DNA of 64,000 nucleotides from Ginglymostoma cirratum (Eukaryota). This document shows positions 15,201-61,498 of the stretch, piece after piece. The stretch spans positions 44,361,983-44,425,982 of the forward strand of contig JAHRHZ010000017.1 in the NCBI GenBank assembly GCA_024137785.1. The letters run 5' to 3'. Within the stretch, counting starts at the first letter, position 1; every line of letters begins with the position of its first letter. The notes under the pieces were generated by a model, which searched no databases, was not told the origin of the DNA, and saw only the letters and a list, made by a program, of their open reading frames with translations. A program made the position numbers and the translations under genes.

Positions 15201-18200
15201 AGTGCTGTCAGTGTTTGTCTGTTGGTGATCACCTTTGCACTTATGTACTCCTGGTTCTTCATTAATGAGAAACATGTAAGTTGATAAAGAATATGAGTTT
15301 TGAAATTATTCTCTGTAAACTTAACAGAGTTTAATGTAATCAGATAAATTTATTTTGTTCACCATTTTGGTGTATTGTTTGTATGATTCTGATAGAATAT
15401 GCATCAAGCATTCAAACTCCAGTATTAGACAACTTATTCAATTTGAATATTTATAAAAAAGTTCAACCTTGTCTTGGAATTAGTCCAAAATATAATAGCC
15501 AATTAATTTAAAAACCATATTACATTATGTGTTGTCAAAATAATATTATTTTATTAATCCATAATTTAGACTTTATGTAAACAAATTATTATTGTGATAT
15601 ATTTTGGAGTGAGATGTTCTGGGAATCCTTAACATTGACTGTGGATTCCATGAAATTTTATGGGATCAGAACAAATATGGCAGAGAAACATCAAAATGAT
15701 CAATCTTCACCCACAAATCTCGGCTTCTGCTCAAACTGGCCAAGTCTTGAAAAATATATCTGCTGTAATGGCAAGTGCAAGTTTATGAGGGTACCTGCAC
15801 AAGAGAAATTCTATTTGTCTTCATCCTTATCTGTTTACCTGCCACAAGTACATTTGTCCTTGACTGTAGTGGTTGGAGTGACCATTTGAACTTCTCCTGA
15901 GTTCCCAACCATCACCGATGTCTGTTTTCAGCTAATTCAGTTTACTCCACATGAGATCAATAAATGGCTGAAGACGCTGGATTCAGCAAAGACTATGGGC
16001 TCGACAACATCACGGTTATGGCACTGAAATGTGACAAAGAATTAACCATGCTCCTAGCCAAGTTGTCCTAATACATCCAAAACACTAGCACCTATCCAAA
16101 AATAAGAGAATTTTCATAGTTATGCCCGACTCACAAAAAAGCAGGACAAATCCAATCTGACCAATGTCCTCCCCAATAGTCTACATTCAAGCATCAACAA
16201 AGTGATAAAAGATGCTGTCAACAGTGCTCTCAAATAGCATTTGCATGGCATCTATTCACTGATAAAAGCCGAAAGAACTGCGGATGCTGTAAATCAGGAA
16301 CAAAAACAAAGTTGCTGGAAAAGCTCAGCAGCTTCTGTGAAGGAAAGAAACAGAGTTAACATTAATGTTTCAGGTCCTGTGACCCTTCCTCAGAACTTCT
16401 TCTAGTTCTGAGGAAGCGTCACTGGACCCGAAACATTAACTCTGTTTTTTCCTTCACAGATGCTGCCAGACCTACTGATCTGCTCACTGATGTTGCATTT
16501 GGAGTCCACCAGCATATTCTGCTTCAGGAATAATACAGCCTTGGTCCAAGTGTGGACAAAAGAGCTGAATCCAAGAAGTGAGGTGAGAATGCTCTCCCTT
16601 AACATCAAAGCAGCATTTGAATGATTGTGGCATAAAGGAGTCCAAACTTAAAGTCAATGAGAATGGGGATATAACATCTCCACTGGTTAGAGTTATACCG
16701 AGCATAAGGGAAATGGATGTGGTTGTTGAAGGTCAGTCAAAGAAGCCTCAGAATATTTTCCCAAAGCCTTGTCCACCGTGTACAGTACAGGTGAGAAGTG
16801 TGATTGGATGTTGTCCATTTGCTGGATGTGTGCAGCTCCAACAACAGTCTGAGCTTGATAAGATCCAAGACAAAGCAATCTGTTTGTTTGGTGCTCCATT
16901 CAAATATTCAATGGCTTCACACAGGTGCATTATGGTTGCCACATGAATTATTGATAATATGCATTGCAGCTGTTCACCAAGACTTCTTCAACAGTGCCTT
17001 CCAAACTTGACATCTCTACCACTTAGAAGAGTGAGCAGTGTGAGGGTACTGTGCCTTTCGGAGAGATTTGCCCAGTGCTGTTTCTCTGCAGAGAGGTGTT
17101 GCCAGTGGTGAAAGAATGTCTGCTTCAGAAGTGGTGGGTAAACAGCTTTGAGCACCCTGAGTATGTTATAAAATTAGATAAAAGAAATACGAGTTAATGG
17201 GGTCAGGGCTGTCAGACCACGGAAGGCTTTAAATTTGATTTTCAGTTAGTGAGAAGGCTTCTGCTGACTGCTGAGCGAAAAGTTTGAGTTCCCAGCTGCT
17301 GGTGTGAAGTCTTATAGAGTGAGGCTTCTTCTTAAAAACCAATAAGGGGCATAGTATTTCTTTCTTCTGGTGTGGATGAGATAACGTGAGGAAAATCTGT
17401 TTTGCTGAATTTGCTTTTGCCAACGGTATGTTTACAAAATGCTGCTATTTTGGAACAGTTGATGATTAGTAGTTAAATAATATATTGTTTTATTGAGAAT
17501 TCAATAGAGTTAAAGTTATAGAGTCACAGAGTCATGCTGGATGGAAACAGGCCCTTCAATCCAACTCGTCCATGCCAACCAGGTTTCCCAAACTAAACTA
17601 GTCCCATTTGCCTGTGTTTAGCCCATATCCATCTAAGCCTTTCCTATTCACGTACCTATCCAAATGTCTTTTAAATGTTGTAACTGTACCTGCAATTACT
17701 GCTTCCATATACGCACCATCCTCTGTGTGAGAAAGGTACCCCACAGGTCCCTTTTCAATCCATCCCCTCTCACCTTAAAATTATGCAAGTTAAATTGTCC
17801 TGAAGAACTTGCGGATGCTGCAGAGGCAGTGCCATTGGAAGTGCTTTAAGTTCCACTGATAGGACTGCATCACAAATGCTGAAGTTCTGGAAATAGCCAA
17901 CGTCACCAGCATCAAGGCCATCCTCCGGCAAAGCCAAATGAGTTGGCCAAGTCATGTTGCACAAAACGATGATAGTCATCCATCCAAAATTGTTGTATGG
18001 AGGGCTCACCACTATTGAAAGGAACAGCAGGGCCACATGCAAATGTTTCAAGGAGGCCATGAAGAAGTCCCTCCCTGTACGTCAAATTGACAATCGCCAG
18101 TGGGACAGGCACCCTTTAGGTCATGTTGCCTAGAGATTCAACTTCAGAAATGCTACAGGCACCTTTGAGACTGGGCAAGGAGCCAGCATGAAAGAGGAAA

Positions 18201-21200
18201 GGAGAATGATAGATTCAATTTTCCTGGGCAGTGACTCTATTTATGCCAATTTTTTTGGTTTGTATTTCAACTGTGTTTTTAAAATACTGTGTTTTGCTTA
18301 AAGCCTGGTAGTGTAACCAATCAAATTACATCTGGAACACAGCACCTTACACTCACCTGTAAATAAAGTCTAGCCAACTCTTTGATACAATTTTTGAGGG
18401 TGTTTGGTCTGGCCCTTAACAACAGACTCATCAGAACACCACTACCTGCAAACCAGGCACCATGCTGACTTGAAACTAAGTTGGCATTCTTTCAGTCCTT
18501 CTGGGTCAAAATCCTGGAAGTCTCTTTGAAACAACACTATCGATGTACAGATACAATACATATGACAGCCGTTCAAGAAGGTCACCATTTTCAAAACAGC
18601 AGGTAGAAATAAACACTAACTTTGCTGGTGACCCCACATGTCACGATCAAATAAAATAAAAATGAGGTTAATGTTGTTTATTGGTAGTCTCCTTGGACAT
18701 GGAAATCATCGCAAGTTCCAAATTTTGATCAGGATATACGATTTCCACTGAAGGCCGCAGAGCAGCTTCCTTGCTTAACTTTCATCTCATGTGGCATTGA
18801 TACTAACTCCAACAGCAAAACCTGGGAGAGTGAACTTAGCACAGATGAAGGAGGGAATCTCAAAATTATTGCACCTGACACTTCAGTATCAAAAAACAGG
18901 GTGCCTTTACCACAGAGCCCTAATGTGCAGATGGTTACAGAGTGATAATATCGCTGGACTAGGAAGGCTGAAGGCTAATGTTCTGGGGATTTGATTTCAT
19001 ATCCCACCATGGCTGATTGTGGAATTTAAATTCAATTAATTAAATTTGGAATACAAATACACTTGATAGTACAGCGCTTGAGTGTTGCTAAGAAAAGAGA
19101 TACATTGGCTGAATTTTACCAGAAATCAGCTAAGCAGTTTTGGCAAATTTCATCAAGTGTTTCTGTGAGCTATAGCAAGTTTGCTCATGCTATCATCCAA
19201 ACTAGTTTCACTACCTATGCTGCACACCCCTGTAACACCCACTAGTTTTATTCTTCCACACACCACAAGCAGAACGCAGGCCACAACGAGGACTTCCTGG
19301 GATTCCTGGTATCACTATCATCTTTAGAGCCCGACTACGCACCTGGTCAAGTGCTGGAAGTCTGCTGCTGCCTTCAACAATTACTATCAATTGCCCCAGA
19401 AATGTTGGACAGAGGGCAATTGCTTTGCTAATTTGGACCTGGAGATCCTGGTGGCTGGGTGCTATTCTCTGTACATGTTGTGTGTGCCTAACATATTGAT
19501 GACTAGTGTCCAAGATGGAGAGCTGAAGAAGCTAAAGGTGAGCTGAAGTCACCAGGTAATCACTCTGACTTTCATGTCAGGAGTTGTCACTATCTAGTTT
19601 CTACTGAGTAGGTGGAAGATTAGGAAGCTGCCATCAATCAACGAGGAATAACATAATGATGAGGATTTGGTGCATGCTGAACATGCAAACAGGCTTTTCA
19701 CCGCTCACTAGCAAAAATCATGTCTTGTCGTTCAACACTTGCAAAATGGGACTTTTTGTTCTCAATGTTAGCAATCTCATTCCTACCAAGCTTACATGTT
19801 TCTCCCAGTTTTCTTGTCATTACCCACAGTCTTCACTGGCTGGGAAGATTCTGTCCATTTTGTCTAAGCTCTTTGTTTTCCATTTACTTTGATATTCCTT
19901 GTGAATCGTCCTAATCAGTGCAAAACTCTGTTCACAATAAGAAGATAACAAGGTGTGGAGCTGGATGAACACAGCAGGCCAAGCAGCATCATAGGAGCAG
20001 GAAAGCTTGACGTTTCGGGCCTAGACCCTTCACCAGAAATAAGACGAGACTGCTAACTGGCAAGTGAACTCTGGGAGAGGTGTTGCATCACTTCATGATG
20101 ACTGAGACGTAAACTGCATAAGTGTTGTTTAAATTTTAAGTACACATGCTGACTCTGTTTGCTTAGGCATTGCCTGAGAAATGAACCAGACTGTGATTTA
20201 TTTTGTCGAGTTGAATCAAGCACTGTGTGTGTGTGTATATTCTTTCTGTCTGCAAAAAAGTGGCCTACATGTTATTATATGTAGCTTCAACTCAGATAAA
20301 AATGCCGCACTGTAAACCGAACTGATAATCCTAAATTGGTTGTTAGTGTAATTTTTCACAATCTCAGATTTACTTTGAAAATTTTATTCTCTGGAACAGG
20401 TGGAGCTTGATCCCAAGTCATTTGTCCCAGAGGTAGGGACACTGTGCCACAAGACCCTTCCCTTAGTCAGTCATATCTACATGGGAATTGTGCATAACTT
20501 GGGCATTGTGTCAGGTATATCACAATCTCAAAGACTGCCTCAGTTCCAGGTCAGAGTGTGCTTAGTGATGCTCCAGTAATGATCTCCTTAAATACGGTCA
20601 TGAGGAAATAATCTCCAGGACTCCCTTGGAGTTAAGTCTAGCCTCTGAATAGGGTTGCCAGAATCCTAAACTGTGTAGAATAACAGGCCAATTGGTGTAA
20701 TCATTAGGATTTCAGAGGCTGCAATTTCTGCAACAGTTACTTTTAATGGAGACACCTGTCTCCACATAGTGGATACCATGTCATGCTGAGACCTGAGAAT
20801 TGTCATTTCCTGCTGGCAAATTAATTGAAAAGGCTTTAATGTATTGAACTTCAGCCCTCCTGCTGTGCAGCTGAATTGCTGGGCTTTTGCCACAGCAGGT
20901 AATCTGTGTGTAGGATGGAAAATTTCAGCCTATTTGCAGAACAGAGATGGATTGCCACGTAGGCTACTTAAGGCAAGCTACTTTTTCTGGATCAGTATCT
21001 GTTACCACTTGTAGCCCACCCTGGGAGAAACACAGGTGAGAACATGTGGTCAGTCTGTTCCAACACAATTTTGAGATTTCATTTCTTCCCTTACTCCAAA
21101 GCTGCCATCACAGGTAGGAAAAGTTCAACCCTAGATTTCTGACTTACTACTGTTCAAGAGCAAAAAGAAATAGAATAGAATAGAAATTTATTGCCGCATG

Positions 21201-24200
21201 TACATATACATGAAAAATACAGTGAAAGGTTTTATGAGTTGCCTCACCACAGCACCTACGTCAATGACAGAAGTCATAGATAATTTTTTAAAGAGTAAAA
21301 TTAGGACAAAGTTCATCAAGATTCAGTAGAATCACAGCAATAATAAATTCTTAACAAAAGATTGATTTCTGTTTGAACATTTATAACTGCAGCTTATAGA
21401 TCCAGGAAAAGTGCAGACTGTATTGGAGTCCTCTGTTGGCTATGCTGTAACCGCCTTGCAGCTTCTGGCAGCATTTTGGTTTTTGTGTTCAACATACAAA
21501 ATCGTACAACATCACCCTGAGAAACGGCCATTTTATCATCTCTTCTTTCCTGCATTTGCTTTATGGTGAGTCTGCTCGTAAGCATATTTGCAAGCAATTA
21601 AAAGGTTGCTATTTTATTGATAAAGGCAGTCAAGGGGAGCCCAGCGTCATTGTAGACCGATTATGTACCAGTGGCAAACTATGTGACCTCCTGATATTTT
21701 CCTGACACAAATTATATCATGTACTTGCTTTATAAGTGGAGTCAATATTGGAGATTGAAGCTGGTTCCCACTGTTTCTGTATGTAATTGTCAGAAGTCAC
21801 ATGACACCAGGTTGTAGTCCAACAGGTTTATTTGAAATCACAAGCTTCAGAGATGCAGCTTACTGAAAGCTTGTGATTTCAAATAAACCTGTTGGACTAT
21901 AACCTGGTGTCATGTGACTTCTGACCTTGTCCACCTCAGTCCAACACTGGCATCTCCACATCATGTATGTAATTGTGTGATGGCATATCTAACTATATGC
22001 TAGAAAAGAAGACTGCAAAATATTGCTTTGGAGAAGCTGGAACTCTTCTTCATAGAAAAGAGTAAGAGATTTGATGGAGTTATTCAAAATCATGAGGTGT
22101 ATGGACAGGGTAGATTGGGAGAAACTGTTCCACTTAGTGGAAAGTTAGAGGGCCAGAGGCCATCAATTTAAGGGGAATTGACAAAAGATAGAACTGCAAC
22201 ATAAGGAAAAGCCACTTTAATGCATCAAGTGATTTGGCTCTGGAATACACAGCTTGGGAGTGTGTTCGGGCAGATTGAATTGAGGCTTCAAAAAGGAATT
22301 GAATAATTAATTGATGAGAAAATGATGCATGGGAGGAGGGGAGAAAGGGGAAGGGGAATAGGTCTTGGGACATTGCTCTTCTGGGGAGCTGGTCCGGACA
22401 CAGTTAGCAGAATTCCTCCCATTGAGTTGTGACCAGTCTATAATAAATGCAAGTAGTCCATGTATTTTGTTCATCTTGCTAAAGGTTTTTATGAGGTTCA
22501 TCATGACTCCTTTCCTGAGAATTCTCTGTCTAGTTATAAAGTATTTTGAATTATGATATTTGATCAGACCTCTGAGGGTAAATTCTGATTTGCATTTTGC
22601 CTTGACAGGTTTTTTGCAGTGCCTATTAGTAGCCTTTTTGGAGAATTTATAATTGTAAACTGGAAACGTGAACGTATCATGAACACAGTCTCACTATTTT
22701 TGAAATTCTATGTCTATGTTGTTATGTTGGTAGGTATTCTTGGTGCTTAGTAGAAATAATGAGTTCTACAGTAACAATATCTGCTTGGAAGTATAGGTTT
22801 GTTTGAAAAATAAGTAATAACTAATAAGGCAGAACAAACAATACTAAAAACATTTCAAGGAAATTAATCATTAAAGAAGTCAAAGCAGATAGTGGGAAAA
22901 ACCAGAAAGGTCCTTTTTGAAATTGGGATAAACCTGGAGGGGGACAACACACAGTAAGTTAATAAACTTAATCACTGAAAATAAGATTTGGAAAGAGACG
23001 TATCCTCAACACACCTAGGCATGAAAATAACATGTTAATTACAGGGAAACACTGGAACTATCCAATCGATAAGAGGTGGCAAAAACCCTTATCAGGTTAT
23101 TATAATTACATACCAGGATCAGGCAACACTCAAAATCAGAAAAATGAAATATCGTCTTTACTGACATTCCTTTCATGAAGGATTCTTTTGAGATTGAAAG
23201 ATTGTGTGAGAGATGAAAGGAATATCCATACAATATTATGAAGCATCACAAGCAAATTGACTAGATAAAAGCTCACAAAGGAACCTTCACAAAATAATTA
23301 AGGAATAATATTAAAGGGTACAACATCACATCAAAGAGGGCGAAATCTATAAAGAGGTTTACCCCCATCATTTACAAAGCAGAAAGGATTGGAACAATAT
23401 GAAAGGAAGACTATTCAGAAATATTAGGTACCCTCATAATACTTCTGAAAAGTTATTTTCTCCCAGCAAAAGAAGTATTTTACTTGCTCAGAACTTTAAA
23501 TATGTTGATGGATGTTCTTTTCCTGATGTTGTTAGATATTTCTATCTGTTCTTAAATATTGTTGAGTAGTTATAAGTCACATCAAACTGGATTTTATTCA
23601 ATCTGGTATAAAATCCTTTGATAATTTGCCATAGTGGTGTACCTATCTAGTTAAAGTGTTAATTTCTGTAAATAAAGTTATAAAATAAATAAATCATCTC
23701 AAGGTTTCCTGTTACAACTGAAATGGATGCTACTCTCTGTAGACTTCTTGGGTTTGGGGGTTGCTTAGGTCATTTGGCCAGACAGCTGGTTTGCGATGCA
23801 GAATGATGCCAACAGTACATGTTCAATTCCCATACCAGCTCAAGGTCCCATCCTGTCAACTTTTCACTTTGCCTGAGGCATGGTGACCCTGAGATGAAAC
23901 CATTACTATCATCTCTCTCTAATGAGCGAGCAGGCTGTGATCCTCTGGGACTCTGGTGACTTTATTGTTTTTTTACATACCTCTTAAGTGGGAGGTATAT
24001 ATTTTGGAGAGAGTAATCTCACACGTTTAAAATATTTGGCATGTTTATAGTGTAGCTATGGCTTAATTGAAGTTACCAGATTATTTGAAGGAAGATAACA
24101 CTCTACTATCCAAAATTAAGTGTTTTGTGGGATTGACTAGCTTGAACTCAGCAGACTGAAGTTACAAGGGAAAGACTCCTAACCTAAATTAGCTCCAAGT

Positions 24201-26869: not shown

Positions 26870-27232
26870 GTAAGGTAATAGCTATCTATTAAGTCTTATA
26901 ATATATTTAATGGAAGTTGGTCTTAGCACCTGTGATAGAATCTGACTCTGGTGGGAAATTTGATTTTTGTTTGGCTGCAACTCATTTATAGAATATGGTA
27001 AATAGTTGCCAATCTTCCAAGATTGGCCTGGAGTCTCTTGGCCTGCAGTTGGTTGAGATAAAATCAGAGTAATGTGAAGAAAGATGCATTTTCGTGTTAT
27101 TTTCCTTGAATAGGTTTCTTTACCAGACAAAGAAATATTGGAAGTTGGAAAGAAGCTTTGTCTGACCATTGAGCATCATCCAATTGGATATTGAGTCTTT
27201 TTGCTTTCTAATTAGTTTAGAAGAATGGACAT

Positions 27233-27348
27233 AAACAAAGTTGCTGGAAAAGCTCAGCAGGTCTGGTAGCATCTGTGAAGGAGAAAACAGAGTTAATGTT
27301 TCGGGTCCGGTGACCCTTCCTCAGCACTGAAAGGAAGGAAGGAAGAAA
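27233..27348 (-). mobile_element. Single-arm family A PLE terminus with hammerhead core
   Basis: Reverse complement CTGAGGA-a-gggtc-accg-gaccc-GAAA-catt at ~27295-27324; TSD ttagaag(a/g)atggacat at 27217-27232 and 27349-27364. Confidence 0.75.
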
Positions 27349-28479
27349 TTAGAAGGATGGACATGTTGGCCAACATTAATGACTGGACCCTGGGTGCACG
27401 TCATGTGATGAAACCTCTAGGAATACATTTCCTCACAACTGGCAACCTCAAAAGGTAGTGTTGAGCCAGTGAGGGATCATCTATAAAAAGCAAGACCATC
27501 AACAAGGACTAAAGTGATGCAAAGGCAGTGAGGATGCAGAAAGATAGGGCAGCGGGAATACAAGTGGCGCAGAGATAGCGGGGTGCAGTGGGAAAGAATG
27601 AAACCGTAAGCATATATAAAAACAGTGCAGAGCTTGTGAGAACATAGGAGGGGATCAAGAGGAAAGAGCAGGCTTACATTCTAAAGGAAAAAGGCAGTGA
27701 GGATAAAAGCAATGCAGAGATGGTGGGCACAAAATGTGGAAGAATGGGAAACAGCGAGACCAGCAGCGGATGTAAAAGCCATGCAGAGTCCGCGAAGAAA
27801 CAGCAGGGGAGCAATGGGCACTGCGCTGCCTTGAGGCACCAGATTGAGGTGTGAAAAAACGGGGTATCAAATAGGCAGTTCTGAAGAAAGATCACTGGAC
27901 TTGAAACGTTAATTCTTGTTTTCTTTCCACTGATACTGCCAGACCTACTGAGTTTCTGCAACAATTTCTGTTTTTGTAGCAAATAGGAGACTGACTGAGC
28001 GAAAAGCAGGGAGCTGAGAGGTTGACCCAACCACTTGATTTAACAGGAGAAGAAAGGGCAGCACAGAGAGAGGCAGAGTCAGTGTGGGAGAGGAGGCCCA
28101 GAGTCTGGTTGTGATGTTAAAACTAAAAGTATACAGGAGACGCAAGTACACTTGACATAAGTGGAAGATCTGAGAGCCAACTGTGAACAAGTAGCTTGCC
28201 GTCATGGCACAATGAACCTTGGCTGGTATTGGAGGTGCAGGTCCATATGGAACATCCTGCCTACTTTGTCACTGACCTACAAGCAAGCAGGACCATAGGT
28301 TCCTAGAATGGGGGAGCCTTGGGAAACAACGTGTGTTAGTCCGCATTGTGCAGCTATGTCAGGTCTTACATCATCTCGGTTATCCTACCATTGGACAAAG
28401 ATCATGCCGGGACCATGTGGTTATTGGTGTACAATGCGCACCTCAAGATCCCATGCACATGCATCTTCAATCTCTTCAA

Positions 28480-31436: not shown

Positions 31437-31649
31437 AAAACTGAAAGAACTGCAGATGCTGTAAATCAGAAGCAAAAACAGAAATTGCTGGAAAAGCTCA
31501 GCAGGTCTGGCAGCATCTGTGGAGAGAAATCAGAGTTAATGTTTCGGCTCTGGTTCTGAGAAAGGGTCATCAGACCCACAACATTAAATCTGATCCCTGT
31601 CCACAGATGCTGCCAGACCTGCTGAGCTTTTCCAGCAATTTCTGCTTTT
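31437..31649. mobile_element. PLE-terminus hairpin mini-element, family A, inserted into a SINE
   Basis: Inverted arms; TSD gtcttt(g/a)gattaaca at 31422-31436 and 31650-31664. Confidence 0.85.
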
Positions 31650-47100: not shown

Positions 47101-50100
47101 GGAATATGCAAAAGGCCCCAACTACCTGATTTTCAGACTGAGGATGATCAAAAGCATAGGCGAGGCATCTGTCGTTAACAATAAATCATTACTTATTACA
47201 AGCCATTAGGTTCTATCTATAGGTAAACAATTAAACTAAATTAAGCAATCTCTACACACCAAAAGTCTAACCCCCTAATAAACTCCCCCTTTCACATACA
47301 CAGACAAATCTAAGCACAGGGGTATAGGGAAACCTGGAAAAGCATTTCTCTAGAGATAAAAGGTACTGCAGATGCTGGAGAATCCGACATAACAAGCACG
47401 GGGCTGGATGAACACAGCAGGTCAAGCAGCATCATAGGAGCAGGAAAACTTGACGTTTCGGGCCTAANNNNNNNNNNNNNNNNNNNNNNNNNNNNNNNNN
47501 NNNNNNNNNNNNNNNNNNNNNNNNNNNNNNNNNNNNNNNNNNNNNNNNNNNNNNNNNNNNNNNNNNNNNNNNNNNNNNNNNNNNNNNNNNNNNNNNNNNN
47601 NNNNNNNNNNNNNNNNNNNNNNNNNNNNNNNNNNNNNNNNNNNNNNNNNNNNNNNNNNNNNNNNNNNNNNNNNNNNNNNNNNNNNNNNNNNNNNNNNNNN
47701 NNNNNNNNNNNNNNNNNNNNNNNNNNNNNNNNNNNNNNNNNNNNNNNNNNNNNNNNNNNNNNNNNNNNNNNNNNNNNNNNNNNNNNNNNNNNNNNNNNNN
47801 NNNNNNNNNNNNNNNNNNNNNNNNNNNNNNNNNNNNNNNNNNNNNNNNNNNNNNNNNNNNNNNNNNNTGCTTGTTATCAAAGCATTTCTCTAGTCTTTGT
47901 TCACAAAATCTATTGGGTTGGTTCTTGTTGATCTGAAATTTTCTCCTTGAATTTCCTTTTTCTGAATGCCTCCACTGGATTGCAGGAGGCACAGGGTGGC
48001 TACTTTCCTTTTGAAATGTCTCTGATGTATGCATTCCAAAGTCACGACTGACTAGAAGGAAAAGTAGACAGGTTTTCTTCAGGTTTAAAGTGGCTTCCTG
48101 CAGAGAACTATGTGTTTTGGCTGCTGCAGGTTTGTTATCTTCTGATCCGATAAAACTTCCCGCTATCTTGTTCAGCTGTTCTGCTAATTGGCAACCTCAT
48201 TATTGGTAGCTAAAGGATTTTTAAAAATTAATTAATTTATTCATTCACGGGATAAGGGGCGTTGCTGGAAAGGCAGCATTTATTGCCCATCCCCCATTGT
48301 CCAGAAAGATTCAACCACATTGCAGTGGCTCTGGAGTTACATAGGCCAGACCAGGTAAGGATAGCAGTTTCCTTCCCTAAAGGACATTCATGAACCAGAT
48401 GGGTTTTTCCGATAATTGACAACGGACTCACGGTCATCATTAGATTCCGAACTCCAGATATTTATTGAATTCAAATTCCACCACCTGCTGTGGCGGGATT
48501 CGAACCTAGGTCCCCAGAATGTTATCCGAGTCCCTGGATGAACCGTCCAGCGATAATACCACAAGGCCCTTGCCATTGGCCTTTAGTCAAATTGTCTTTG
48601 GTCCACAAACCACAAACAGGGTTCATAAAATGTTTCAAATACCTTACTTCCAAAACATGCAGCCATCTTTGTAAATCCCTGGGTTGCAAACCAATTCTTT
48701 CTCATTTCGTCCACGATTTAAAAAGAAAAACAAAATTCAAAAGACATGGCCTTTACATTGGTTGTCTGTGGTGCAGGAATTGAATTTCTGCAGTGCATCT
48801 TGTTGATGGCGCACACAACGGTTACTGAGTGTTGATGGTGGAGGAAGTGGATGTTTGTGGATGTAGTGTCAATCAAGCGGGCTGCTTTGTCCTGGATGGT
48901 GCCGAGCTTCTTGAGTGTTGTTGGAGAGACACCCATCCAGGCCAAGGGGGAGAGTTCCATTACACTTGTGACTTGTGCCTTGTCGATAGAGGACGAGCTT
49001 TGACGAAACAAGAGATGAACTAGTTGCTGCAGGTTTCCTAGCCTCTGACCTGCTCTTGCGGCCGCTGTATTTAATGGCTAGACCAGTTCAATTTCTGGTC
49101 AACGGTAATGTCCAGCTGTTGATTGAGTATTCAGCGATGGTAAAAATATTAAATGTCAATGGACTGATGGTTAGACTTTCCCCTCAAAGCTAACCACCAT
49201 CTACAAGGCACAAGGCAGGAGTGTGATGGAATGCTTCCCACTTGCCTGGATGGGTGCAGCTCCAACAACACTCAAGAAGCTTGGCACTATCCGGGGCAAA
49301 GCAGCCCCCGCTTGGTTGGCACCACATCCAAAAACATCCACTCCCTCCACCACCGACGCTCAGTAGCATCAGGATGCACCATCTACAAGATGCACTGCAG
49401 CAATTCACCCAAGTTCTCTTTAGACAGCACCTCCCAAACCCATGATCGCTAGCATCTAGACGGACGAGGGCAGCAGAGACACGGGAACACCACCACCTGC
49501 AAGTTCCCCTCCCAAGCCATTCTCCATCCTCACTTGGGAATGTATCACGGTTCCTTCAGCATCACTGGATCAAAATCCTGGAATTTCCACACTGATGGCA
49601 TTGCGGGTGCACCTACAGCACATGGACAGCAGCAGTTGAAGAAGGCAGCTCACCACCACCTTCCCAAGTGTTAGAAATGCTGGCCCAGTCAGTGATGCCC
49701 ACATCCCATGAGTCAATCAAGAAAGAATATAGACCTCACTTTAAAGTGTCATCTGAAAGGCAGACCAACAACAGCCTTTTATATGTGGTACAGCAGCACA
49801 ATGTTTATGTAGATCATGGATTGGGATATAAATTAATGACTTTGTTATGTGGAGACTAGGGTCGAATCCGACATCTTTCTGACTTTTATTGCCGCATTTT
49901 AAGCTTGAAAATCCTGTAGGTAGGTGGTTGCGGACGCAGAGCGTGGATGATTGATAAGTAGGTTTCTGAATTCTCCACCTGATTGAATCGCCATAACATA
50001 TGTTCGAGAAAACTAAACTGGCTTTGGGGTTGCCACTGACAAATGGCTTGCCTTTTCATGGGAGAAAAGTGTTTGGGGAAGTTCCTGCAGAGAGTTCAAA

Positions 50101-53100: not shown

Positions 53101-56100
53101 TGCCTTGACAGTTTTAATGATTTTAGCAGGGTTATATTCTGGTGAATCTGGTACACTGATTTCAAGGCTGAATGATTTGTGTTTTCTTGACCGATGCTTC
53201 GTGGCATGCTGAGTAATTTCTTTTTTGGCCTGAACCTCCGTTTTTGCATCTGGATATATAAGCAGTATTTCCATTATTGGCCACTTCAGTTCTGTGGTCA
53301 GAATCATTCACAACCCAGTGTCTTTTGAATGAATGGCTGACTACATTTGTGCAGGTTATTTTTAGCACCTGTGAATGGTTCTGGTTCTCTGTCAACCGGA
53401 ATTACAGAGTAATTTTTAGTCTTCACAACGTGAGTTAAACGGATATCATTAGTTAGTACCTTTTGAAGGGCTTTCTTTTGCAGGTTTTTAATTCAGGAAA
53501 ATAAAAGGGAGGCCCAAGATTGTTATGGGACTTGACTGGATTGGTGTGGAAAGTATGTTTCCCCTGTGGGAGAGTCGAGGACCAGAGGGCATAATCTCAG
53601 AATAAGGGGTCATTTATTTAAGAGAGAGACAAGGAGGAATCTCTTCTCTGAGGGGAGTGAATTGGTGGAACTCTGTATCACAGAGGGCTGTTCAGGCTCA
53701 GTCATTAGGTATATTCAAGGCTGAGGTAGATTACTCATTGGTAAGGGAATCGAGGGTTTTGGGGAAAAGGCAGCAAAGTGGATTTGAGGGTTATCAGCCA
53801 TGATCTCATTGAATGGTGGAGCAGACTGCAATGAGCTGAATGGAGCAGAAGTTGGCCAATGTCTTATGATCTTTAACCCCATGTGCAATGAAGATTCCAG
53901 CCTCGGGTGACTGTGTGGAGTTTGCACATTCTCCCCGTGTCTGCGTGAGTCACCTCTGGGTGCATCGTTTTCTTCCCACAGTCCAAAGACGTGTAGGTTT
54001 GGTGGATTGACCGTGCTAAATTGCCCATAATGTCCAGGGATGTAAAGGCTAGGTGTGTTAGCCACAGGAAATGCAGGGTCACAGAGATAGGATTGGGGTG
54101 GTGGGTCTGTGTGGGCTACTGTTTTCAGGGTTAGTGTGGACTAGATGGGCCGAATGGCCTGCTTCCACACTGGAGGGATTCTATGAAACATAATCTCAGC
54201 CTTATTCCATTGTTAACACCTGTACAGGATGGGTTGAAGGGCTAGAAGTTAATGATGATATTCAACAGCTGCATGAGAAAATAGATCGTACAGGATGGGC
54301 TAAAGGGCTAAAATTGTTGATGACACTCGACAAGCTGCATGACCTTGAGGCTACTTTCTTTTCATATCTCTGAATTGGAGGAAGAGTTGGATAGCAGCTT
54401 AATCACTGCGTTTTGATTCACGGCTACAGTTTGCTCATATTTGGGACAAAAATCTTTGATTATGGCTTTCCACGCCTCGTAAAGTGGATTTTTCTTTTTG
54501 CATTTTTCTAGGGAAAAACACTGTCGACTATTGCAGTAATCCTTACAAATTTTCACCAGGGACAGCCACTCCCCACTGAAAAGTTCACACGGGGACCAGT
54601 GGTAGAGGAGGTAAGAGTTAAAACAGATGCCATATTTATATTTATTTGCTTAATGAATAATCATAGAGAAGAATCTTGCTTCTTTTTGCGTGAATAATTT
54701 AGATGAATATCCATTAAACAATAAATGGATCACAGTGAACGTTGATGCGCTGTAGATTCCGCTCCTGTATCCCCTAGAATGGTCAGGGACAGGTCAATAC
54801 ACTGGTTCCTCCTGAAACAGAGATAAATGTTTTTCCAACTGACTTGTTCCCTGCGATGGATCAGCTGTTTATTACAGTTGGTGGTTTTCAATCACTGTGC
54901 AACCTCCTTCAGTTGTAATCCAAGCTGGGAGTGTAAGAGCACATTCCGCTCTGTGTCCGATCTTTCATCAAACATTATTTAAAAAAGGCTTGGACAGGCC
55001 TCTGGGACTGAGTGTGATGAGTGCTCCTGAGTAACCAATAGTGGACATTTCTCCTGTCTCCGACAAACAGGAGAATCTTGACCTCAATGCCTTTCCATAA
55101 AAGCTCAGTATTCCAACAGTTTAGACCTCTCCACCCACTGGCCCGTTTATGACTCACAAAACTGTTGAACTCCTTTTCATATGGTGGGCTTTCTTTGACC
55201 TGCACCATATTTTGCACATTGGCTGTGGCCACTGACAGGGTCAACTATACAAGTCATCAGCCTTCATGTCTACCTTTTATAAACAGATGGACTAATCTTT
55301 TAAAAGTAGCCATTTTTCTAAGTTAGCCCATCCTGTGTACTTGCGGGTTAGAGTAATTGGACAAAACAGTATGGCCACCACTCACATGGAGATGGGGTGG
55401 GACATCAGTGGACTGTGGCAAACCCTGAAGTATCTGCACCATCCTGCCTCAGTGAGGTCACATGTCCTGGGAAGGGACTTCAGCAGCAACATGTGCAGTC
55501 CCTCAGCCCACCTCCAGGTGGTGTCACCTCGACTGCTGCTCTGTTGTTGCTGTCCCCCTCCTTCTGCCCAGCCATCTCTAACCATCACACCTCCCTTCCT
55601 TTTCCTACCCGATCTGAGTAGCTGATAAGTTTTGATGGTACGGGGATAAGCAAATGCTGAATTCTTTTCTACCCTTTTTAAATGTAGGAACCACTTGGGT
55701 TTGCTGATGCTTTGGGGAAATCGTCTGCACATCAAGCTAACATGGAGCTATCCAGTACTTTCAAAACACAAACAGGTAAATTTGTTGTCTTTACCATAGT
55801 CATGAAAGGTAGTTGAAGGGGTTAGGCCCGAAACGTCAAGTTTTCCTGCTCCTATGATACTGCTTGACCTGCTGTGTTCATCCACCCCCATGCTTGTTAT
55901 CTCCGTTCCTCTGTGAAGTTGTTGGGGCGTTATTGATGTAGGAGACATGCTTTCTATGTACAGTCTTTGGTTCTTGTAACATTCTCCTTGATAGCAAGAT
56001 GGTCGAGGAGCAGAGATACCCTGAGCTCTATAATGTTGCCTCACAAGGTACCACTGGTTCTAAGACTATAAGGTCTTGTTATTTTTCTACTGTGTGCAGG

Positions 56101-59100
56101 TCTTGGAGCCAAGTAAGGATTCTGTGAGCTGTGAACTACGATATCATGATGGGTATCTGGAAGTGATTACAATGCTGTAGTCAGACTATTGATAAACTAG
56201 AAAAATTCTGATCAAGTCGTTCTTAGTTGTTAGCTAGACCCCTCATGTTAGTGTTTCTTTTTTCTTATGGTTCATGTTGAAACATAAGTTGTTTAAAAAA
56301 GAAATATGATCGGACAGTCATGGAGATAATAGACTCTGTATTCGTTGGTTCACTGACCAGCCAGCGCGGACTTTTAAGTGTTGACTTGAACTGTCATGTT
56401 TGAAGGAAACGAAAGGCTTTCTAGTAACTGGGTGTTTTGAGTGTCATATTGGGAGCAGTTTCTCTCTTTGACTCCAAAACTGCGGAATACTCTGTGAATG
56501 TGAGTAAGTTTATTTGAGAGGCTTGTGAACCTGGGGTTTGGGTGGCTGCCGTGCAGTATGTCTGTCTGTCTGTCTTACTGCGCTACAGTTGTATTGTGCT
56601 ACACCATCAATCTAGTGCTGATGGATGTCTTGATGGCAGGAGGGTCCCATCTCTGTGCTGCAGTGCAGTTGGCCAGTGCAGTCCCTTTCTACCTGAGAAT
56701 GTTAAATATCCATTCCCTTTTCATCATTGCAAATAATGTAGGTGCTGACAACAGGAACCAGGCCACTGTGATCGATACCACAGGAAGCATTAATTCCTCG
56801 GGATCGAAACCACTTGCGTCTTCATATCCCAAAAGGTAATGGACTGTCATTTTAACCTGCATCCTTGCTGCTAGTTACTTCCTTCTGCATTTGTATACTG
56901 AAGTTACAGCTTTTAATTTGCATAATTTTAAACAGTTTGTTTTTACACTTCACGGTTGTCTGTTGCTTGCTTAGCTCATCTTTATGAGCCAATTACTGGG
57001 GAAAAAAACAGAAGTTGCTCTAAAAACTCAGCAGATCCGGCAGCATCTGTGAAGGAAAAAATACAGAGTTACCGTTTCAGGTCCGGTGACCCTTCCTCAG
57101 AACCGGACCCGAAACATTAACTCTGTTTTTTGCCTTCACAGATGCTGCCAGATCCGCTGAGCTTTTCCACCAACTTCTGTTTTTGTTCCTGACTTATAGC
57201 ATCCGCAGTTCTTTCAGTTTTTACTAAGCTAATTACTGGAGGTGTGCTAGACAACATTCAACTCTGTTAAGCCTTTGCATAATGTGAATGCTGGCGCCTG
57301 GAGAGCTGTCATACTGGACTGGGGAGTGTTGAGTCTGTTTCTCTCTCCACAGATGCCGTCAGACCTGCTGAGTTTTTCCAGTAATTTGTGTTTTTATTTC
57401 TGTTCAAGCCTTTGTGTGCTGAATACCCTGGAAGTCACCAAGCGACTTTCTTCCACACTCCAAAGAATATAGACAATGAGGTGACTTTTTTGAAACATAC
57501 AGGATTTTTCGGGAACTTGACAGGGTAGATGTGGAGAGGTTGCTTTCCCTCCTGGGAGAGTCTCAGATCAGAGGGCATCATCTCGGAATAAGAAGTCACA
57601 TGTTTGAGACAGTAATAGTGAGGGTTTTCTTCTCACAGAGGGTTATGAATCTGTGGGATTCTTTACTGCAGAGAACTGTTGAGGCGGGGTCATTAAGTGT
57701 ATTCTTAGGAGACAGATTTTTAATCAGTAAAGGAATCAACAATTAAAAGGAAAAGGCAGGAAAGTGTGGTTGCCGATTCTCAGATCAGCCGTGAACTCAT
57801 TGAATCCTGTCATTGAGGCCAGGCGACACGGTGGCTCACTAGTTAGCACTGCGGCCTGCCAGCGCCAGGGACCCGGGTTCGATTCCACCCTCGGGTGACT
57901 GTCTGTGTGGAGTTTGCACATTCTCCCTGTGTCTGTGTGGGTTTCCTCCCACAGTCCAAAGATGTGCAGGTTAGGTGGATTGGCTGTGATAAATTGTCCG
58001 TAGTCCAGCAATGTGCAAACTAGCTGGATTAGCCTTGGGAAAGAATGTTCCAGATGTTGGGGAACTAGGGGCCACAATCTATGAATAAGAGGTAAGCAGT
58101 TCAGGACTGAGATGAGGAAGAATTTCTTCACTCAGAGTTGTGAACCTGTGGAATTCTGTACCACAGAAATCTGTTGGTCAAGAGGGAACTGGATGTGGCC
58201 CTTGTGACTAAAGAGATCATGGGGAGAGGGCGGGAATGGGATACTGAGACTGCACGATCCTATAGAATGGTAGTGCAGCCTTGAAGGGCCAGTAGGCCTC
58301 CTGCACCTATTCCCTGTGCTTACGGGAATAGGGTAGAGGTGGTGGGTCTGGGTGGGATGCTCTTTGGAGGGTCATTGTGGACTCGATGCGATGAATGGCC
58401 TACTTCTCCTATGTCTTGCGCTGTTCGGGGAGTCACTCACATACCTATTAATGTGGAACTTTTTCTACAGATACCAAGCCATCTGAAGTTCAGAGCAAAG
58501 CAGAAACAAAGCATTTACGCTGTGCCCAGCTGATCATTGCTTCAAATCTCTTCCGTTTAGGATACTCTGCAACACATCATGCCCATGACGTGTTTTCTTG
58601 AGTGCTAGAAAACTACTGACTCCCTTAGCCTGAGTTACCATTCTCCCCTCTGTGTGCTTCAGTTCCCATTCCAGAGAGTTGAGTACTAAACCCAGGCAGG
58701 TATTCCCAATACAAAACAGGGAAATGCTGCACTGTCGAAAGCACCATCTTTTGGATGAAATACTTCCCCAAGGCCAAGTGTTTTTTATTTTATTTCTTCA
58801 CGGGATGTAGGTGCCCAGCACTTATTGCCCATCCCTAATTCCCCAGAGGGTAGTTGGGAGTCATCCACATTATTCTGGAGTCACATGAAGGCCAGGCCAG
58901 GTCAGGATGGTAGATTTCCATCCCTGAAGGGTATTAGTGAACTCAGTCGGTTTTTCCACTAATCCACAGTAGTTCCTATTCGGCCAGATTTTTATTGAAT
59001 TCAAATTTTGCTATCTAATACGACGGAATTCAAACTCATTTCCCAGAACATGAACTTAGGGCTCTGGATAACTGCCAGTCTAGTGAAATTACCACTAAGC

Positions 59101-61498
59101 TGCCATCCCCCTTTAACCCTACCTTGCACAGGTGAATGCCTAAGATCCCACTGTTTTGAAGAAGGGCGGAGAAATGGTTTTGGTGTCCTGGTCAACTCTA
59201 ATCCCTCAACCCAACACTTCACAGCAATAGATAGTAGGAACTGCAGATGCTGGAGAACCTGAGATAACAAGGTGTAGAGCTGGATGAACACAGCAGGCCA
59301 AGCAGCATCAGAGGAGCACAAAAGCTGACGTTTCAGGTCAGGACCCTTCTTCTTTCTGAAGAAGGGTCTAGGCCCGAAACGTCAGCTTTCCTGCTCCTCT
59401 GATGCTGCTTGGCCTGCTGTGTTCATCCAGCTCTACACCTTGTTACTTCACAGCAATATCTTGTGAATTATTGTCTTGCTGTGCACAAGGCACAAGTTTT
59501 CTACATCATGACAATACCTACTGCCTCCTTTGAAACTACTGCGTGAGCTATAAAGGATAGGACCTGAGTTCATTATGTATATAAATTCAAGTCTTAGTTT
59601 TTCTTTTCATTGTGTTGGGGATCTCGAACTATAAAGAGAGGCTGAATAGGCTGGGGCTATTTTCCCTGGTGTGTGGGAGGCTGAGGGGTGACCTTAAAGA
59701 AGTTTATAAAATCATGAGGTGCATGGATAGGGTGAACGGCCTTTTTCTTGGGGTGGCAGAGTCCAGAACTAGCGGGCGTAGGATGAGAGGAGAAAGATTT
59801 TCAAGGGGCCTAAGGGGCAACTTTTTCACGCAGAGGGTGGTGTGTGTATGGAATGAGCTGCCGGAGGAAGTGGTGGCGGCTGGTACAATTACAACATTTA
59901 AAAGGCACCTGGATGGGTACATGGACAGGAAGGGTTTAGAGGGATGTGGGACTAGATTAATTTAGGATATCTGGTCGGCGTGGACAAGTTGGACCGAAGG
60001 GTCTGTTTCCCTGGTGTACAGCTCTATGACTGTGATGGTTTCTGAAGTTTTTGTGATCCTTTCTTTCGGCTTTTACTTTTTATATACGCTTTATCAACTG
60101 GAATGCTGTTTTGTGCAGGAAGAAAACAGAGAATGTTAAATACACGTACAGCAGTGATTCTGAAAAGGATGAAGAATGTATCTCCACAAAAAAGAAAGGC
60201 AAGTCTGTTAGCACGGATCCATTTCATTCACTAAATCTATTGGCGTTGTTTGTCAGGGCCCCAACTAAATGACTTAACCAACATGAACAACAAATTATTT
60301 GGTCATTTTGTTGTTAACAGTGGGGCTAACTGTTTTCTGTTGTAGATTTTTATTCCCACTTTCCCTGATCTGTCGGGTTTACTCTCGATATCAGTAACCC
60401 AAGGCAGTTCTAACAACAGACGATATCCTGTGTTGTTTATTGAAGCAAGGTACGCTACAAAAGACACTGCATTATGCTTACCTGTACAGTGCTGATAATC
60501 CCACCTGAAGCCTTTTACATGGACTTAGAGTCGTAGAGGTGTACAGCATGGAAACAGACCACAACCCTACACCTCCACGCTGAGAGGTTACTAAACTGAA
60601 CTAGTCCCATTTGCCTGCGTTTGGCCCATATCCCTCTGAACTGTTCCTATCCATGTACCTGTCAGGTGATCAGCTTACTCCTGTCTCAAATCCCAGCTGT
60701 TGATCTAACCACTTCCTCAGCAAGTTAGTTTTGCTGTGAGGCATTTTTTTTAAAAAATTCTCATTCTGTACAAAGAAATTATGTATCCAAACCATGCACT
60801 ATCCAGTCTCCAGTAAGTCGTCAGTTTGACCACTGGCAAATATCACAAACATGTCATCTACCACGGCCAGTTTAATTAATTAAGTAGGATTTTCTTGTGG
60901 TTCCTTGGAAAGAGATTTTTCTGTTGTTTTAATGAACTTCGGCTTTAACTTCTAACCACTTTAGTGTCATCCAGTCGACCATATGGTATTTACCCAGCAC
61001 AATTCCATAACCGTCACAGATTCAGCTGATAAATAGACACAGTATCACATCTGATTCATTTCCAGAGTTTCTGTGACCACTCAGTCCATTCCTGCTGAGT
61101 TACAGTGCTTGATGTTAAATCACATTTATAGAATCAGAGTCATAGAGCTTGGAGCTGACCCTTTGGTCCATTCCTTCAGCAAAACACAGAAATAGTTTAA
61201 AACCAGCGACCTTTTGAATCATTATGTCATCACTAGTCTTCTTACATTTTCTCCTCATTTAATTTGATTTTAATTCATCTCCATTTGGCTAAGCCAGCAA
61301 ATTTTAGGCGAACAGCACCTGTTAAACTACTTAATTTACTGTAAATTGTATTTTGAAACATCCGAGGTTGTGAAAGGCACTCGTTAAGTGTTACAAGCTC
61401 TTTCAAAAGTTGTGGCTTTTGTTTTGCAGTGAAAACGCAACAGAAAAGTGCAATGGCTAAGAGAACGGAATGGAGACCCACAAGTAGTGGGAGAAAAG
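37937..61498 (+). CDS. HLTF: Helicase-like transcription factor (HLTF/SMARCA3, Rad5 homolog), 5' part; spliced span of 11 coding exons, gene continues past the window
   Basis: Exons 37937-38164, 41083-41249, 43386-43519, 45184-45284, 46623-46697, 50592-50783, 54512-54610, 55688-55775, 56742-56835, 60119-60198, 61430-61498 are phase-consistent. They encode HIRAN (VVGMRYYTG, REPNNPYD, QVGHI), the Q motif (LLPHQKQAL) and Walker A (GGILADDMGLGKT). Confidence 0.96.
41083..41249 (+). CDS. HLTF: HLTF exon (VNNNEMVALQREPNNPYDRNAVQVNNVNGIQVGHIKRELAAPLAFILDNRLARVEG)
   Basis: ccag acceptor, gg|gtgagt donor, 167 nt; HIRAN core. Confidence 0.96.
41725..42230 (-). mobile_element. CR1/HER1-type LINE 3' fragment
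   Basis: ERVHKRLTGTLPG...FSLEQRRLRADFIEVY plus 3' UTR. Confidence 0.85.
43386..43519 (+). CDS. HLTF: HLTF exon (VVPYGANNVFTMPVQLSFWGREENRDAVLERLKRHGFKLAPPTK)
   Basis: ttttccaaatag acceptor, g|gtaaat donor, 134 nt. Confidence 0.96.
44125..44428 (+). mobile_element. tRNA-derived V-SINE (HE1-like)
   Basis: Near full-length copy with the same head, V-domain and tail. Confidence 0.85.
45184..45284 (+). CDS. HLTF: HLTF exon (GGGIAEAWSGMRSARPGPSYKAPVHTAVQMTVEQ)
   Basis: ttcctttttag acceptor (in-frame alternative 12 nt upstream), cag|gtgaag donor; resembles GRAGPSYSMPVHAAVQMTTEQ. Confidence 0.9.
45715..46180 (+). mobile_element. CR1/HER1-type LINE 3' fragment
   Basis: LSYKERLEGLGLFPLECRRLRDDLIEV plus 3' UTR. 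Confidence 0.85.
46623..46697 (+). CDS. HLTF: HLTF exon (LKNEFDKLFEDLKEHDKTREMEPAE)
   Basis: ttcttgcag acceptor, gag|gtcaga donor, 75 nt. Confidence 0.96.
47354..47878. mobile_element. Family B hairpin element containing the assembly gap
   Basis: Left arm ends gacgtttcgggccta at the gap, right-arm remnant tgcttgttatc; perfect TSD aaagcatttctctag at 47339-47353 and 47879-47893. Confidence 0.75.
47468..47867. other. Assembly gap (400 N)
   Basis: Run of n. Confidence 1.
48780..49715. mobile_element. Two copies of the same LINE 3' region in inverted, divergent orientation
   Basis: 48780-48990 (minus) is complementary to 49195-49405 (plus): tctacaaggcacaag...caacaacactcaagaagct. Confidence 0.75.
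50592..50783 (+). CDS. HLTF: HLTF exon (AVCTPLLPHQKQALSWMVLREN...RPENVRGGILADDMGL)
   Basis: tgttgtcag acceptor, ttg|gtaact donor, 192 nt; SNF2 Q motif and motif I. Confidence 0.97.
51303..51645 (+). mobile_element. Second tRNA-headed SINE family
   Basis: tRNA-like head (ggcctagtaa...gattcgaatcc) and core ggttcactgatgtcctttagggaaggaaactgcc; other copies at 31140-31700, 48237-48580 and 58790-59105 (all minus). Confidence 0.7.
52034..52926 (-). mobile_element. Young CR1 LINE 3' fragment (intact ORF2 C-terminus) nested in an older LINE
   Basis: Uninterrupted ORF MEFNVEKCEVIHFG...LYKTLVRPHLEYCVQFWSP...FFTQRVVRAWNALP; (ATGTTCT)n tail at ~52034-52050. Confidence 0.93.
53897..54186 (+). mobile_element. 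V-SINE (HE1-like), 5'-truncated
   Basis: V-domain and tail ending gggattctatga. Confidence 0.8.
54512..54610 (+). CDS. HLTF: HLTF exon (GKTLSTIAVILTNFHQGQPLPTEKFTRGPVVEE)
   Basis: atttttctag acceptor, gag|gtaaga donor, 99 nt; completes Walker A GKT. Confidence 0.95.
55688..55775 (+). CDS. HLTF: HLTF exon, variable insert (EPLGFADALGKSSAHQANMELSSTFKTQT)
   Basis: aatgtag acceptor after pyrimidine tract, cag|gtaaat donor, phase 0-1 bridges its neighbours; little recognisable homology. Confidence 0.7.
56742..56835 (+). CDS. HLTF: HLTF exon (GADNRNQATVIDTTGSINSSGSKPLASSYPKR)
   Basis: atgtag acceptor, aag|gtaatg donor, phase 1-2; LASSYPKR resembles human LSSSRPKR. Confidence 0.8.
57000..57226. 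mobile_element. PLE-terminus hairpin mini-element, family A
   Basis: Inverted arms aaaaacagaagttg.../...caacttctgttttt; TSD agc(c/t)aattactgg at 56987-56999 and 57227-57239. Confidence 0.85.
59230..59444. mobile_element. PLE-terminus hairpin mini-element, family B
   Basis: ~85 bp near-perfect inverted repeat; perfect TSD acttcacagcaata at 59216-59229 and 59445-59458. Confidence 0.9.
59356..59383 (+). ncRNA. Minimal hammerhead ribozyme-like core in hairpin element
   Basis: CTGAAGA-a-gggt-ctag-gccc-GAAA-cGTC. Confidence 0.6.
59612..60030 (+). mobile_element. CR1/HER1-type LINE 3' fragment
   Basis: YKERLNRLGLFSL...FFTQRVVCVWNELPEEVV; similar fragments at ~11490-11850, 17520-17780, 22030-22300, 53520-53870, 57470-57810, 60525-60660. 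Confidence 0.85.
60119..60198 (+). CDS. HLTF: HLTF exon (RKKTENVKYTYSSDSEKDEECISTKKK) ending at a GC donor
   Basis: tgttttgtgcag acceptor, phase 2; resembles RRKTAVQYIESSDSEE; ends aag|gcaagt. Confidence 0.8.
61430..61498 (+). CDS. HLTF: HLTF exon (VKTQQKSAMAKRTEWRPTSSGRK)
   Basis: ttttgttttgcag acceptor, aag|gtgaat donor, phase 1-1, open frame. Confidence 0.68.

Follow-up and report, generated by a model that had tools for sequence, protein, structure and literature searches.

We analysed a 64,000-nucleotide stretch of DNA from the shark Ginglymostoma cirratum (assembly GCA_024137785.1, contig JAHRHZ010000017.1, positions 44,361,983 to 44,425,982 of the forward strand), hereafter the window, which contains two 5'-truncated coding Penelope-like elements (PLEs) and many short copies of PLE termini. 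Among the latter are hairpins of 170-230 bases, which are genuine insertions formed of two head-to-head copies of a hammerhead-bearing PLE end, and which are likely to represent an ordinary Penelope insertion at its shortest, made anew at each landing and not spreading as a self-cutting unit. All counts refer to this window, and the list of loci is a curation of profile (nhmmer) and BLAST searches together with reading of the sequence.

Eight palindromic elements, assigned to families A, B and C in a preliminary description of this DNA, were recovered at the positions given there, each being two unequal inverted copies of one terminus; the A and B arms are homologous, however (nhmmer cross-hits), and these two families are therefore not independent. 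Polarity was read from the coding PLEs at 3241 and 12820, and arm boundaries were curated by eye. The arms meet head to head, with the hammerhead ends in the centre and the outer ends corresponding to element 3' ends, and a head-to-head, inverted 5'-truncated copy was seen in all seven gap-free hairpins, with B2 being consistent with this. A tail of ~35 nt was present on exactly one arm at 11/11 scoreable two-armed loci, with a probability of at most 0.5^11 if the arms chose freely, and a full tail was found in 3/13 solo arms. Target-site duplications (TSDs) were sought within 12 bp on either side of the boundaries first described, using 400 random sites as the null. Direct repeats flank all eight elements as had been claimed, with lengths of 11-15 bp and not up to 16 bp, and their scores were reached by 0.002-0.032 of the random sites. 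The elements are listed below (no strand is assigned to two-armed copies).

16264-16477, hairpin A1: both arms reach hammerhead stem I, with a central 6-nt pyrimidine filler, a left-arm tail and a right arm that ends early; TSD 16250-16263 / 16478-16491, 12/14 matches.
31437-31649, hairpin A2: the left arm bears the tail and is cut in the stem II loop, the tail-less arm is full; TSD 31422-31436 / 31650-31664, 14/15 matches.
57000-57226, hairpin A3: junction register of A2 in the opposite orientation, with different sequence variants; TSD 56987-56999 / 57227-57239, 12/13 matches.
26385-26593, hairpin B1: both arms about full and both cores mutated, tail on the right, variant type of the coding PLE at 3241; TSD 26370-26384 / 26594-26608, 14/15 matches.
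47354-47878, B2: left arm with tail, 400-N gap at 47468-47867, then the 11-nt end of an inverted arm; TSD 47339-47353 / 47879-47893, 15/15 matches.
59230-59444, hairpin B3: left arm with tail, cut inside CTGANGA, tail-less arm full, stem II variant differing between the arms; TSD 59216-59229 / 59445-59458, 14/14 matches.
21791-21963, hairpin C1: each arm is cut in the region of stem II, CTGANGA on neither strand, tail on the right; TSD 21778-21790 / 21964-21976, 13/13 matches.
35756-35965, hairpin C2: left arm with tail, full at its 5' end and with a broken GAAA box, tail-less arm cut; TSD 35745-35755 / 35966-35976, 11/11 matches.

B2 cannot be counted as a short hairpin, as the central gap hides its length, junction and content. 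At C2, the hairpin lies at the right end of a 43-bp tandem array (4.4 copies, 35203-35750) inside an inverted pair (35278-35343 / 35682-35747).

The termini are tied to coding elements by the following features.

3241-4425, minus strand: coding PLE, 5'-truncated, with a tailed family B end, an intact hammerhead (3364-3341), a Cys-rich linker and a GIY-YIG region.
12822-14330, minus strand: coding PLE, 5'-truncated, with the YIDD motif of reverse transcriptase (RT), a Cys-rich linker, a GIY-YIG region and a family B end.
33496-34224, family D element: 729 bp, head to head, with a 44-nt extension on the right arm and a left arm that enters GIY-YIG-like coding sequence; TSD 33485-33495 / 34225-34235, 11/11 matches, null 0.004.
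34107, plus strand: hammerhead core of D, with a 7-bp stem II and a TGCA/TGCA stem I.

Family B arms match the ends of both coding PLEs, as the preliminary description had it, with 3-23% mismatch among B arms; the B solo arms and hairpins lie within 3-17% of the coding ends, and both B1 arms are nearest to the PLE at 3241. Open reading frame relatives of the two coding PLEs bear Pfam GIY-YIG, and the relatives of the PLE protein include a named one from little skate (P0031), while direct Pfam scans of the PLE frames in the window and a PDB search gave no match. Both coding copies have a CxxxxCxxC-type linker between RT and endonuclease, which may correspond to the Zn-finger-like motif of Neptune elements and so make family B a candidate Neptune-like family. 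A Zn-finger-like motif in this position is described as a mark of the Neptune clade (PMC8557442, in part).

Element D is a fourth PLE family, of which no second copy was found in the window. Its left arm matched PLE endonuclease by tblastn (E=1e-6) and Pfam GIY-YIG at E=0.06, below the cutoff. Since D combines the build of a hairpin with run-on into endonuclease-like coding sequence, the short hairpins belong to a continuum, and the copies form one series of solo arm, hairpin, long two-armed copy and long one-armed copy, with the hairpins at one end. Homology of the terminus to the end of an element with RT and GIY-YIG was found for B and D, and for A only through its homology to B; no coding partner for C was seen within the window. 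The proposal of a PLE origin, with a parental minimal type I hammerhead with palindromic stem III and likely insertion by PLE RT/GIY-YIG, is supported.

Arm ends and junctions

A true 5' end could be placed in 28 arms, 31 having been aligned, from which the two coding ends and the gap-limited B2 arm were set aside. Eighteen of these ends lay 1-6 nt before the core, five at +3 to +8 and five at +13 or +14; the predicted cut (+28 to +30) coincided with none of them. Likewise, in contigs of two relatives, 8 of the 15 joints listed (1773 further joints lay outside the listing) were on the A boundary at 2031-2034 and one was on the B boundary at 3367. Given the absence of ends at the cut and the identical boundary in relatives, the templates were likely not cut by the ribozyme. 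We considered an initiator- or splice-acceptor-like reading of this fixed 5' boundary, which fits A and fits B as initiator only; in Drosophila virilis an intron is described as ending at helix I (PMC4209133, in part). One solo A arm has a pyrimidine tract and CAG directly before hammerhead stem I, inside its TSD (27329-27349), which is splice-acceptor- or initiator-like and may be upstream sequence of an unseen A parent.

The tailed arm is also the 5'-cut arm in A2, A3, B3 and a decayed hairpin at 40385, with the reverse in C2, and in A1, B1 and C1 the arms are both full or both cut. The nine scoreable centres gave seven junction types: A1 is full/full with filler, a remnant at 1933 is full/full, and B1, B3, C1 and C2 each have a different junction, while one junction, on 2-3 nt of microhomology in the stem II loop, recurs in A2 (31555), A3 (57103) and the decayed hairpin (40480). 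At informative sites, where a base was required in all four arms, the arms grouped within elements by 6:0 for A2 against A3, by 3:0 for B1 against B3 and by 2:1 for C1 against C2; the A1 against A3 quartet was uninformative (0:0, one crossed). As the five possible quartets reuse arms, only the three independent ones were counted, which gave 11 sites grouping within element, 1 by arm type and 0 crossed (two-sided binomial ~0.006). Fifteen apparent arm-type columns in A2/A3 reflect a shared truncation and were excluded by the four-base requirement.

Shared junctions across loci had been put forward as support for propagation as a unit. One junction is indeed shared by three loci, but its arms group within each element, and therefore a shared junction is no proof of unit descent and this test is less decisive than expected. 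As the A2 and A3 arms group in this way and the left arm at 40385 is 18-24% from them, the shared junction likely arose repeatedly.

Contigs of relatives also join arms head to tail, at 3367 to 1933 (3, 13 and 13 contigs) and 1981 to 1933 (4, 8 and 14 contigs), and join the A end to the B tail on opposite strands at 1933 to 3240 (1, 5 and 11 contigs); these joints could possibly be tandem or nested arms, or retrozyme-like dimers. The 'from' sides of strand-change joints (1977-1991, 3324) were rejected as junctions, coinciding with alignment stops of other variants. In the DNA runs of relatives, summed contig depth, which is not copy number, was 5-8 million for arm bins, 0.04-1.8 million for the body and ~6-54 for unique flank. 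In the search of sequencing runs, none contained half of the query words, and no RNA run was among the holders listed.

State of the hammerhead core

The shared core that had been described is real, with the motif CTGANGAA-N12..16-GAAA found 10 times against 0.32 expected (0/100 shuffles), 9/10 of these in A or B arms. The family majority cores and the D copy fit the minimal type I hammerhead of PLEs, with an extra nucleotide before stem II (9/10.1), a stem II of 5-7 bp and a palindromic ACGT or AGCT (15.2-16.2), and the copies at 59356 and 3364 have these features. Stem I is 2-4 bp, and its sequence differs among A, B, C and D with pairing kept; on this sequence pattern, the parent elements likely kept the hammerhead under selection.

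The hairpins themselves were said to carry a ribozyme core on either strand, which is not what we found. An intact minimal hammerhead was present in 1/14 hairpin arms, the right arm of B3, and was broken or absent in the other 13; 5/7 scoreable hairpins (A2, A3, B3, C1 and C2) have one or both arms cut within the core, and C1 is without CTGANGA on both strands. Nor were the catalytic boxes significantly better conserved than the other sites, with mismatches at 30/279 positions in the boxes and 385/2875 elsewhere (Fisher p=0.23).

59354-59385, plus strand: the only intact hairpin-arm hammerhead, with a 2-bp stem I, an extra A, a 5-bp stem II and an ACGT palindrome; predicted cut after 59383.

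On either strand of a hairpin the antisense arm is transcribed first. In the folding model the hairpin buries the hammerhead, with a stem II pairing probability of 0.000 in 4/4 hairpin strands folded and a cost of 22-38 kcal/mol for forcing a hammerhead-compatible fold on these four strands. In Rfam, no hammerhead family was among the 15 matches to E=10, the top ones being hairpin-shaped microRNA (miRNA) models below the gathering score. Scanning viral contigs for the core motif gave 0 matches, and the single match in each of the metagenome and prokaryote collections, being confined to the 22-nt motif, was dismissed as chance.

Further copies and window context

A density of roughly one element per 5-8 kb had been proposed, which is too low, as the window holds ~27 loci of these termini, or ~1 per 2.4 kb. 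Passed over in the preliminary description were 13 solo arms, which outnumber the hairpins, three decayed hairpins and the 729-bp element D.

40385-40655: decayed hairpin of A type, which shares the junction register of A2 and A3, differs by 18-24% from their arms and has a rearranged right arm with tail.
34915-35160: strongly decayed A-type hairpin with a left tail; 5' arm fragment at 35110-35160.
1933-2052: hairpin remnant in which an A arm on the minus strand leads into ~20 nt of a second, inverted arm.
24492-24587, plus strand: solo A arm, TSD 11/11.
27229-27349, minus strand: solo A arm whose hammerhead is preceded by 20 nt rich in pyrimidines, TSD 15/16.
27876-27977, plus strand: solo A arm starting exactly 5 nt before the core, TSD 11/12.
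36975-37107, minus strand: solo A arm with tail, starting inside CTGANGA; a TSD-like repeat is not significant.
8536-8637, minus strand: solo A arm, older variant.
37258-37356, plus strand: solo A arm.
44586-44713, plus strand: solo A arm with tail.
57312-57402, plus strand: solo A arm.
19943-20040, minus strand: solo B arm that differs by 3% from the coding PLE end at 12820, with a borderline 7/7 repeat.
55814-55905, plus strand: solo B arm.
32774-32900, minus strand: solo C arm with tail.
37505-37589, minus strand: solo C arm with a 15/17 T-rich repeat.

By the random-site null, no significant TSD was found for 8/13 solo arms (19943 being borderline), for either coding PLE or for the three decayed hairpins. 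Contigs of two relatives pass from flank into the A arm at 1933, and single contigs of both run from unique flank into this arm and into the B end at 3241. The two insertions therefore likely predate the split from these relatives.

The hairpins probably lie in introns. An exon at ~38087-38170 (plus strand) matches helicase-like transcription factor in its HIRAN region (PDB 2mzn, E=1.5e-8). Elsewhere in the window, inverted pairs lie within repeats resembling long interspersed nuclear elements (48781-49407, 59916-60659 and 63275-63677), with arms 80-90% complementary and no convincing TSD, and may be twin-priming inversions. A ~310-bp repeat of the size of a short interspersed nuclear element (SINE) is present in ~6 copies (5561-5877, 10349-10602, 44125-44428, 53893-54186, 57827-58042 and 61706-62018), and a GC-rich minisatellite of 29-33 bp (1124-1467) has long open frames on both strands.

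Formation of the hairpins and relation to known systems

We favour, with a probability of about 0.6, a reading in which the hairpins are head-to-head pairs of PLE ends, built at each insertion by a double nick and priming of complementary DNA (cDNA) on uncut RNA of the pseudo-long terminal repeat (pLTR). The element endonuclease would nick both target strands, with each nick priming a short cDNA on this RNA. One strand would start at an outer RT start site and keep the tail while the other would start at an inner site and be tail-less, and both cDNAs would extend ~100-135 nt, either reaching an RNA 5' end that lies just ahead of the hammerhead or stalling within the hammerhead. Their 3' ends would then be joined by 0-3 nt of microhomology or a short filler, and repair would yield the 11-15 bp duplication. 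The hammerhead would be carried along and then decay. One-sided events would give solo arms, priming at the downstream pLTR would give long coding copies, and priming at the upstream pLTR copy of the RNA would give cDNAs ending near its 5' end. As template, the 5' pLTR end of transcripts from autonomous PLEs is the most likely candidate, and the two stem II variants of B3 hint at two RNA templates. The scheme draws on an anole PLE protein that cuts and extends both strands, begins reverse transcription at two internal positions by which the tail is defined, and uses uncut RNA with no need for hammerhead cleavage (PMC11167929).

Several points weigh against this reading. The system above is Poseidon and family B may be Neptune-like by its Cys-rich linker, so that the transfer would be by analogy, and the RNA 5' end directly before the hammerhead enters only as an assumed step. 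One junction register, with the same tail polarity, is common to three of the five A-type hairpins, only 5/14 arms have their partner as nearest neighbour, conversion between arms could mimic grouping within elements, and the arms of B3 require either two templates or conversion. In relatives, joint contigs reach depths of 1359 (3324/3367), 537 (1990/2032) and 756 (1989/2044) against ~11-22 for unique flank, so that some junction sequences are many times repeated, although contig depth is not copy number. Arms run into coding sequence in 2/9 cases for B and in none for A (0/18) or C (0/6), so that for A and C an autonomous source is presumed. Stem II is also weak in isolated arms (probability 0-0.42), and folding alone is therefore uninformative on the activity of the parent. 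Finally, a single window was sampled.

The alternative that survives best, though we consider it doubtful, keeps the same assembly at insertion and changes the template to a non-autonomous, SINE-like RNA of ~135 nt from a solo or tandem pLTR master, which borrows the PLE RT and endonuclease, so that one arm is what moves. It is conceivable that sharks hold such an abundant SINE-like PLE partner, its RNA running from the 5' edge of an uncut hammerhead and being primed on two strands, one at each RT start site, to give a solo arm or a hairpin. The lack of A and C arms that extend into coding sequence, the fixed 5' ends and the head-to-tail joints in relatives (1981 to 1933 and 3367 to 1933) all favour this, and non-autonomous pLTR derivatives have been described (10.64898/2026.07.22.740005; PMC8557442; both in part). 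Against it, the closeness of B arms to coding PLE ends and the coding sequence of D indicate that autonomous elements make identical structures, and in one solo A arm the 20 nt upstream are pyrimidine-rich, resembling what precedes the B hammerhead in coding copies.

Less likely still is that a single cDNA folded back and primed itself at its 3' end to form the second arm, with trimming at integration; self-priming has been suggested for inverted pLTRs (PMC3846280, in part). The recurrent A junction, which lies on 2-3 nt of AC(T) microhomology at a distance of 14 nt from the end of the arm, and the grouping of arms within elements would both be expected, but a copy cannot outrun its template, and yet the 5'-cut arm bears the tail in A2, A3, B3 and 40385, and the stem II variants of the B3 arms differ. 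Least probable of all is the original proposal of a non-autonomous, ribozyme-processed unit of retrozyme or miniature inverted-repeat transposable element (MITE) type that is transcribed and reinserted whole, because although three loci have one junction and its tail polarity in common, joint contigs in relatives are deep and one C-quartet site follows arm type, it is opposed by seven junctions among nine loci, by the 11:1 grouping within elements, by 0/28 ends at the cut, by a core that is intact in one arm of 14 and buried by the antisense arm on either strand, and by the absence from the window of tandem arrays of the unit.

Returning to construction at insertion, the closest known counterparts are insertions of endonuclease-positive (EN+) PLEs such as Adineta Pen2a/Pen3a (PMC3846280; PMC8557442; both in part), which are alike in having a head-to-head inverted 5'-truncated copy, a TSD, a GIY-YIG partner and a tail of 30-44 nt on one end, the one-end tail of 30-40 nt being present here also. 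All four features looked for, namely PLE terminus, head-to-head arrangement, one tail and TSD, were found in the shark hairpins. The shark copies differ in usually being body-less, with both arms ending at or inside the hammerhead, which gives 170-230 bp, and in TSDs of 11-15 bp against 8-10 bp in Adineta (PMC3846280, in part). The hairpins are accordingly a body-less form of EN+ PLE insertion, and the idea of a new ribozyme system is unsupported.

With the minimal type I hammerheads of metazoan PLEs (PMC4209133, in part) they have in common the core boxes, the extra nucleotide before stem II, the G10.1-C11.1 pair, the palindromic 15.2-16.2 and a short stem I, in mostly solitary truncated copies. 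The same text already noted hammerhead pairs on opposite strands, 100-700 bp apart, in Schistosoma; in those portions of its main text sharks are not named and opposite-strand pairs are not analysed. Anolis Poseidon PAc in vitro (PMC11167929) is alike in its two internal RT starts, in cutting and extending both strands and in not needing cleavage, but neither head-to-head products nor a 5' end fixed ahead of the hammerhead are shown in its main text. Non-LTR (long terminal repeat) retrozymes (PMC7229834; 10.64898/2026.07.22.740005; both in part), reported in one chondrichthyan (10.64898/2026.07.22.740005, in part), are likewise non-coding, pLTR-related, endowed with a type I hammerhead and found together with PLEs, but their units are arranged head to tail in tandem and are set free from cut to cut as linear or circular RNA, whereas the shark elements are head-to-head, mostly core-broken and not bounded by cuts. 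In the window, no head-to-tail tandem units each with a complete hammerhead were found, nor, among the 28 arm 5' ends, any unit bounded by predicted cleavage sites.

Twin-priming inversions of L1 are alike in two nicks, two primed cDNAs, an inverted truncated product and a TSD. In L1 the second primer lies at variable internal sites, whereas both outer ends of the shark elements are defined element ends, ~35 nt apart. MITEs have equal terminal inverted repeats, a TSD of fixed length and a uniform unit; this class was rejected here, as the arms are unequal by the tail, the TSDs are 11-15 bp and the centres differ.

In the open-access literature we found no description of these shark hairpins, with Repbase, Dfam and supplements lying outside the search, and the chondrichthyan family table of the retrozyme preprint (10.64898/2026.07.22.740005) may overlap with them. 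New here are the link to family D, the one-tail rule, the constancy of the 5' boundary and the recurrence of a junction across divergent copies. Formation of the tandem and inverted ends of PLEs has been called undefined (PMC8557442, in part). Body-less copies keep only two priming sites, a 5' stop and a joint, and at the density seen here one shark assembly would offer a very large natural sample of two-strand priming. If the SINE-like reading were true, the one-tail rule and the fixed 5' boundary would together document in vivo the way in which PLEs form inverted pLTRs. Furthermore, Penelope is heavily edited in lizard (PMC5625713, in part), and hairpins in introns would provide ready-made double-stranded RNA and would be likely substrates of ADAR. 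They may also cause assembly gaps, as at B2, and can be mistaken for MITEs or miRNA precursors.

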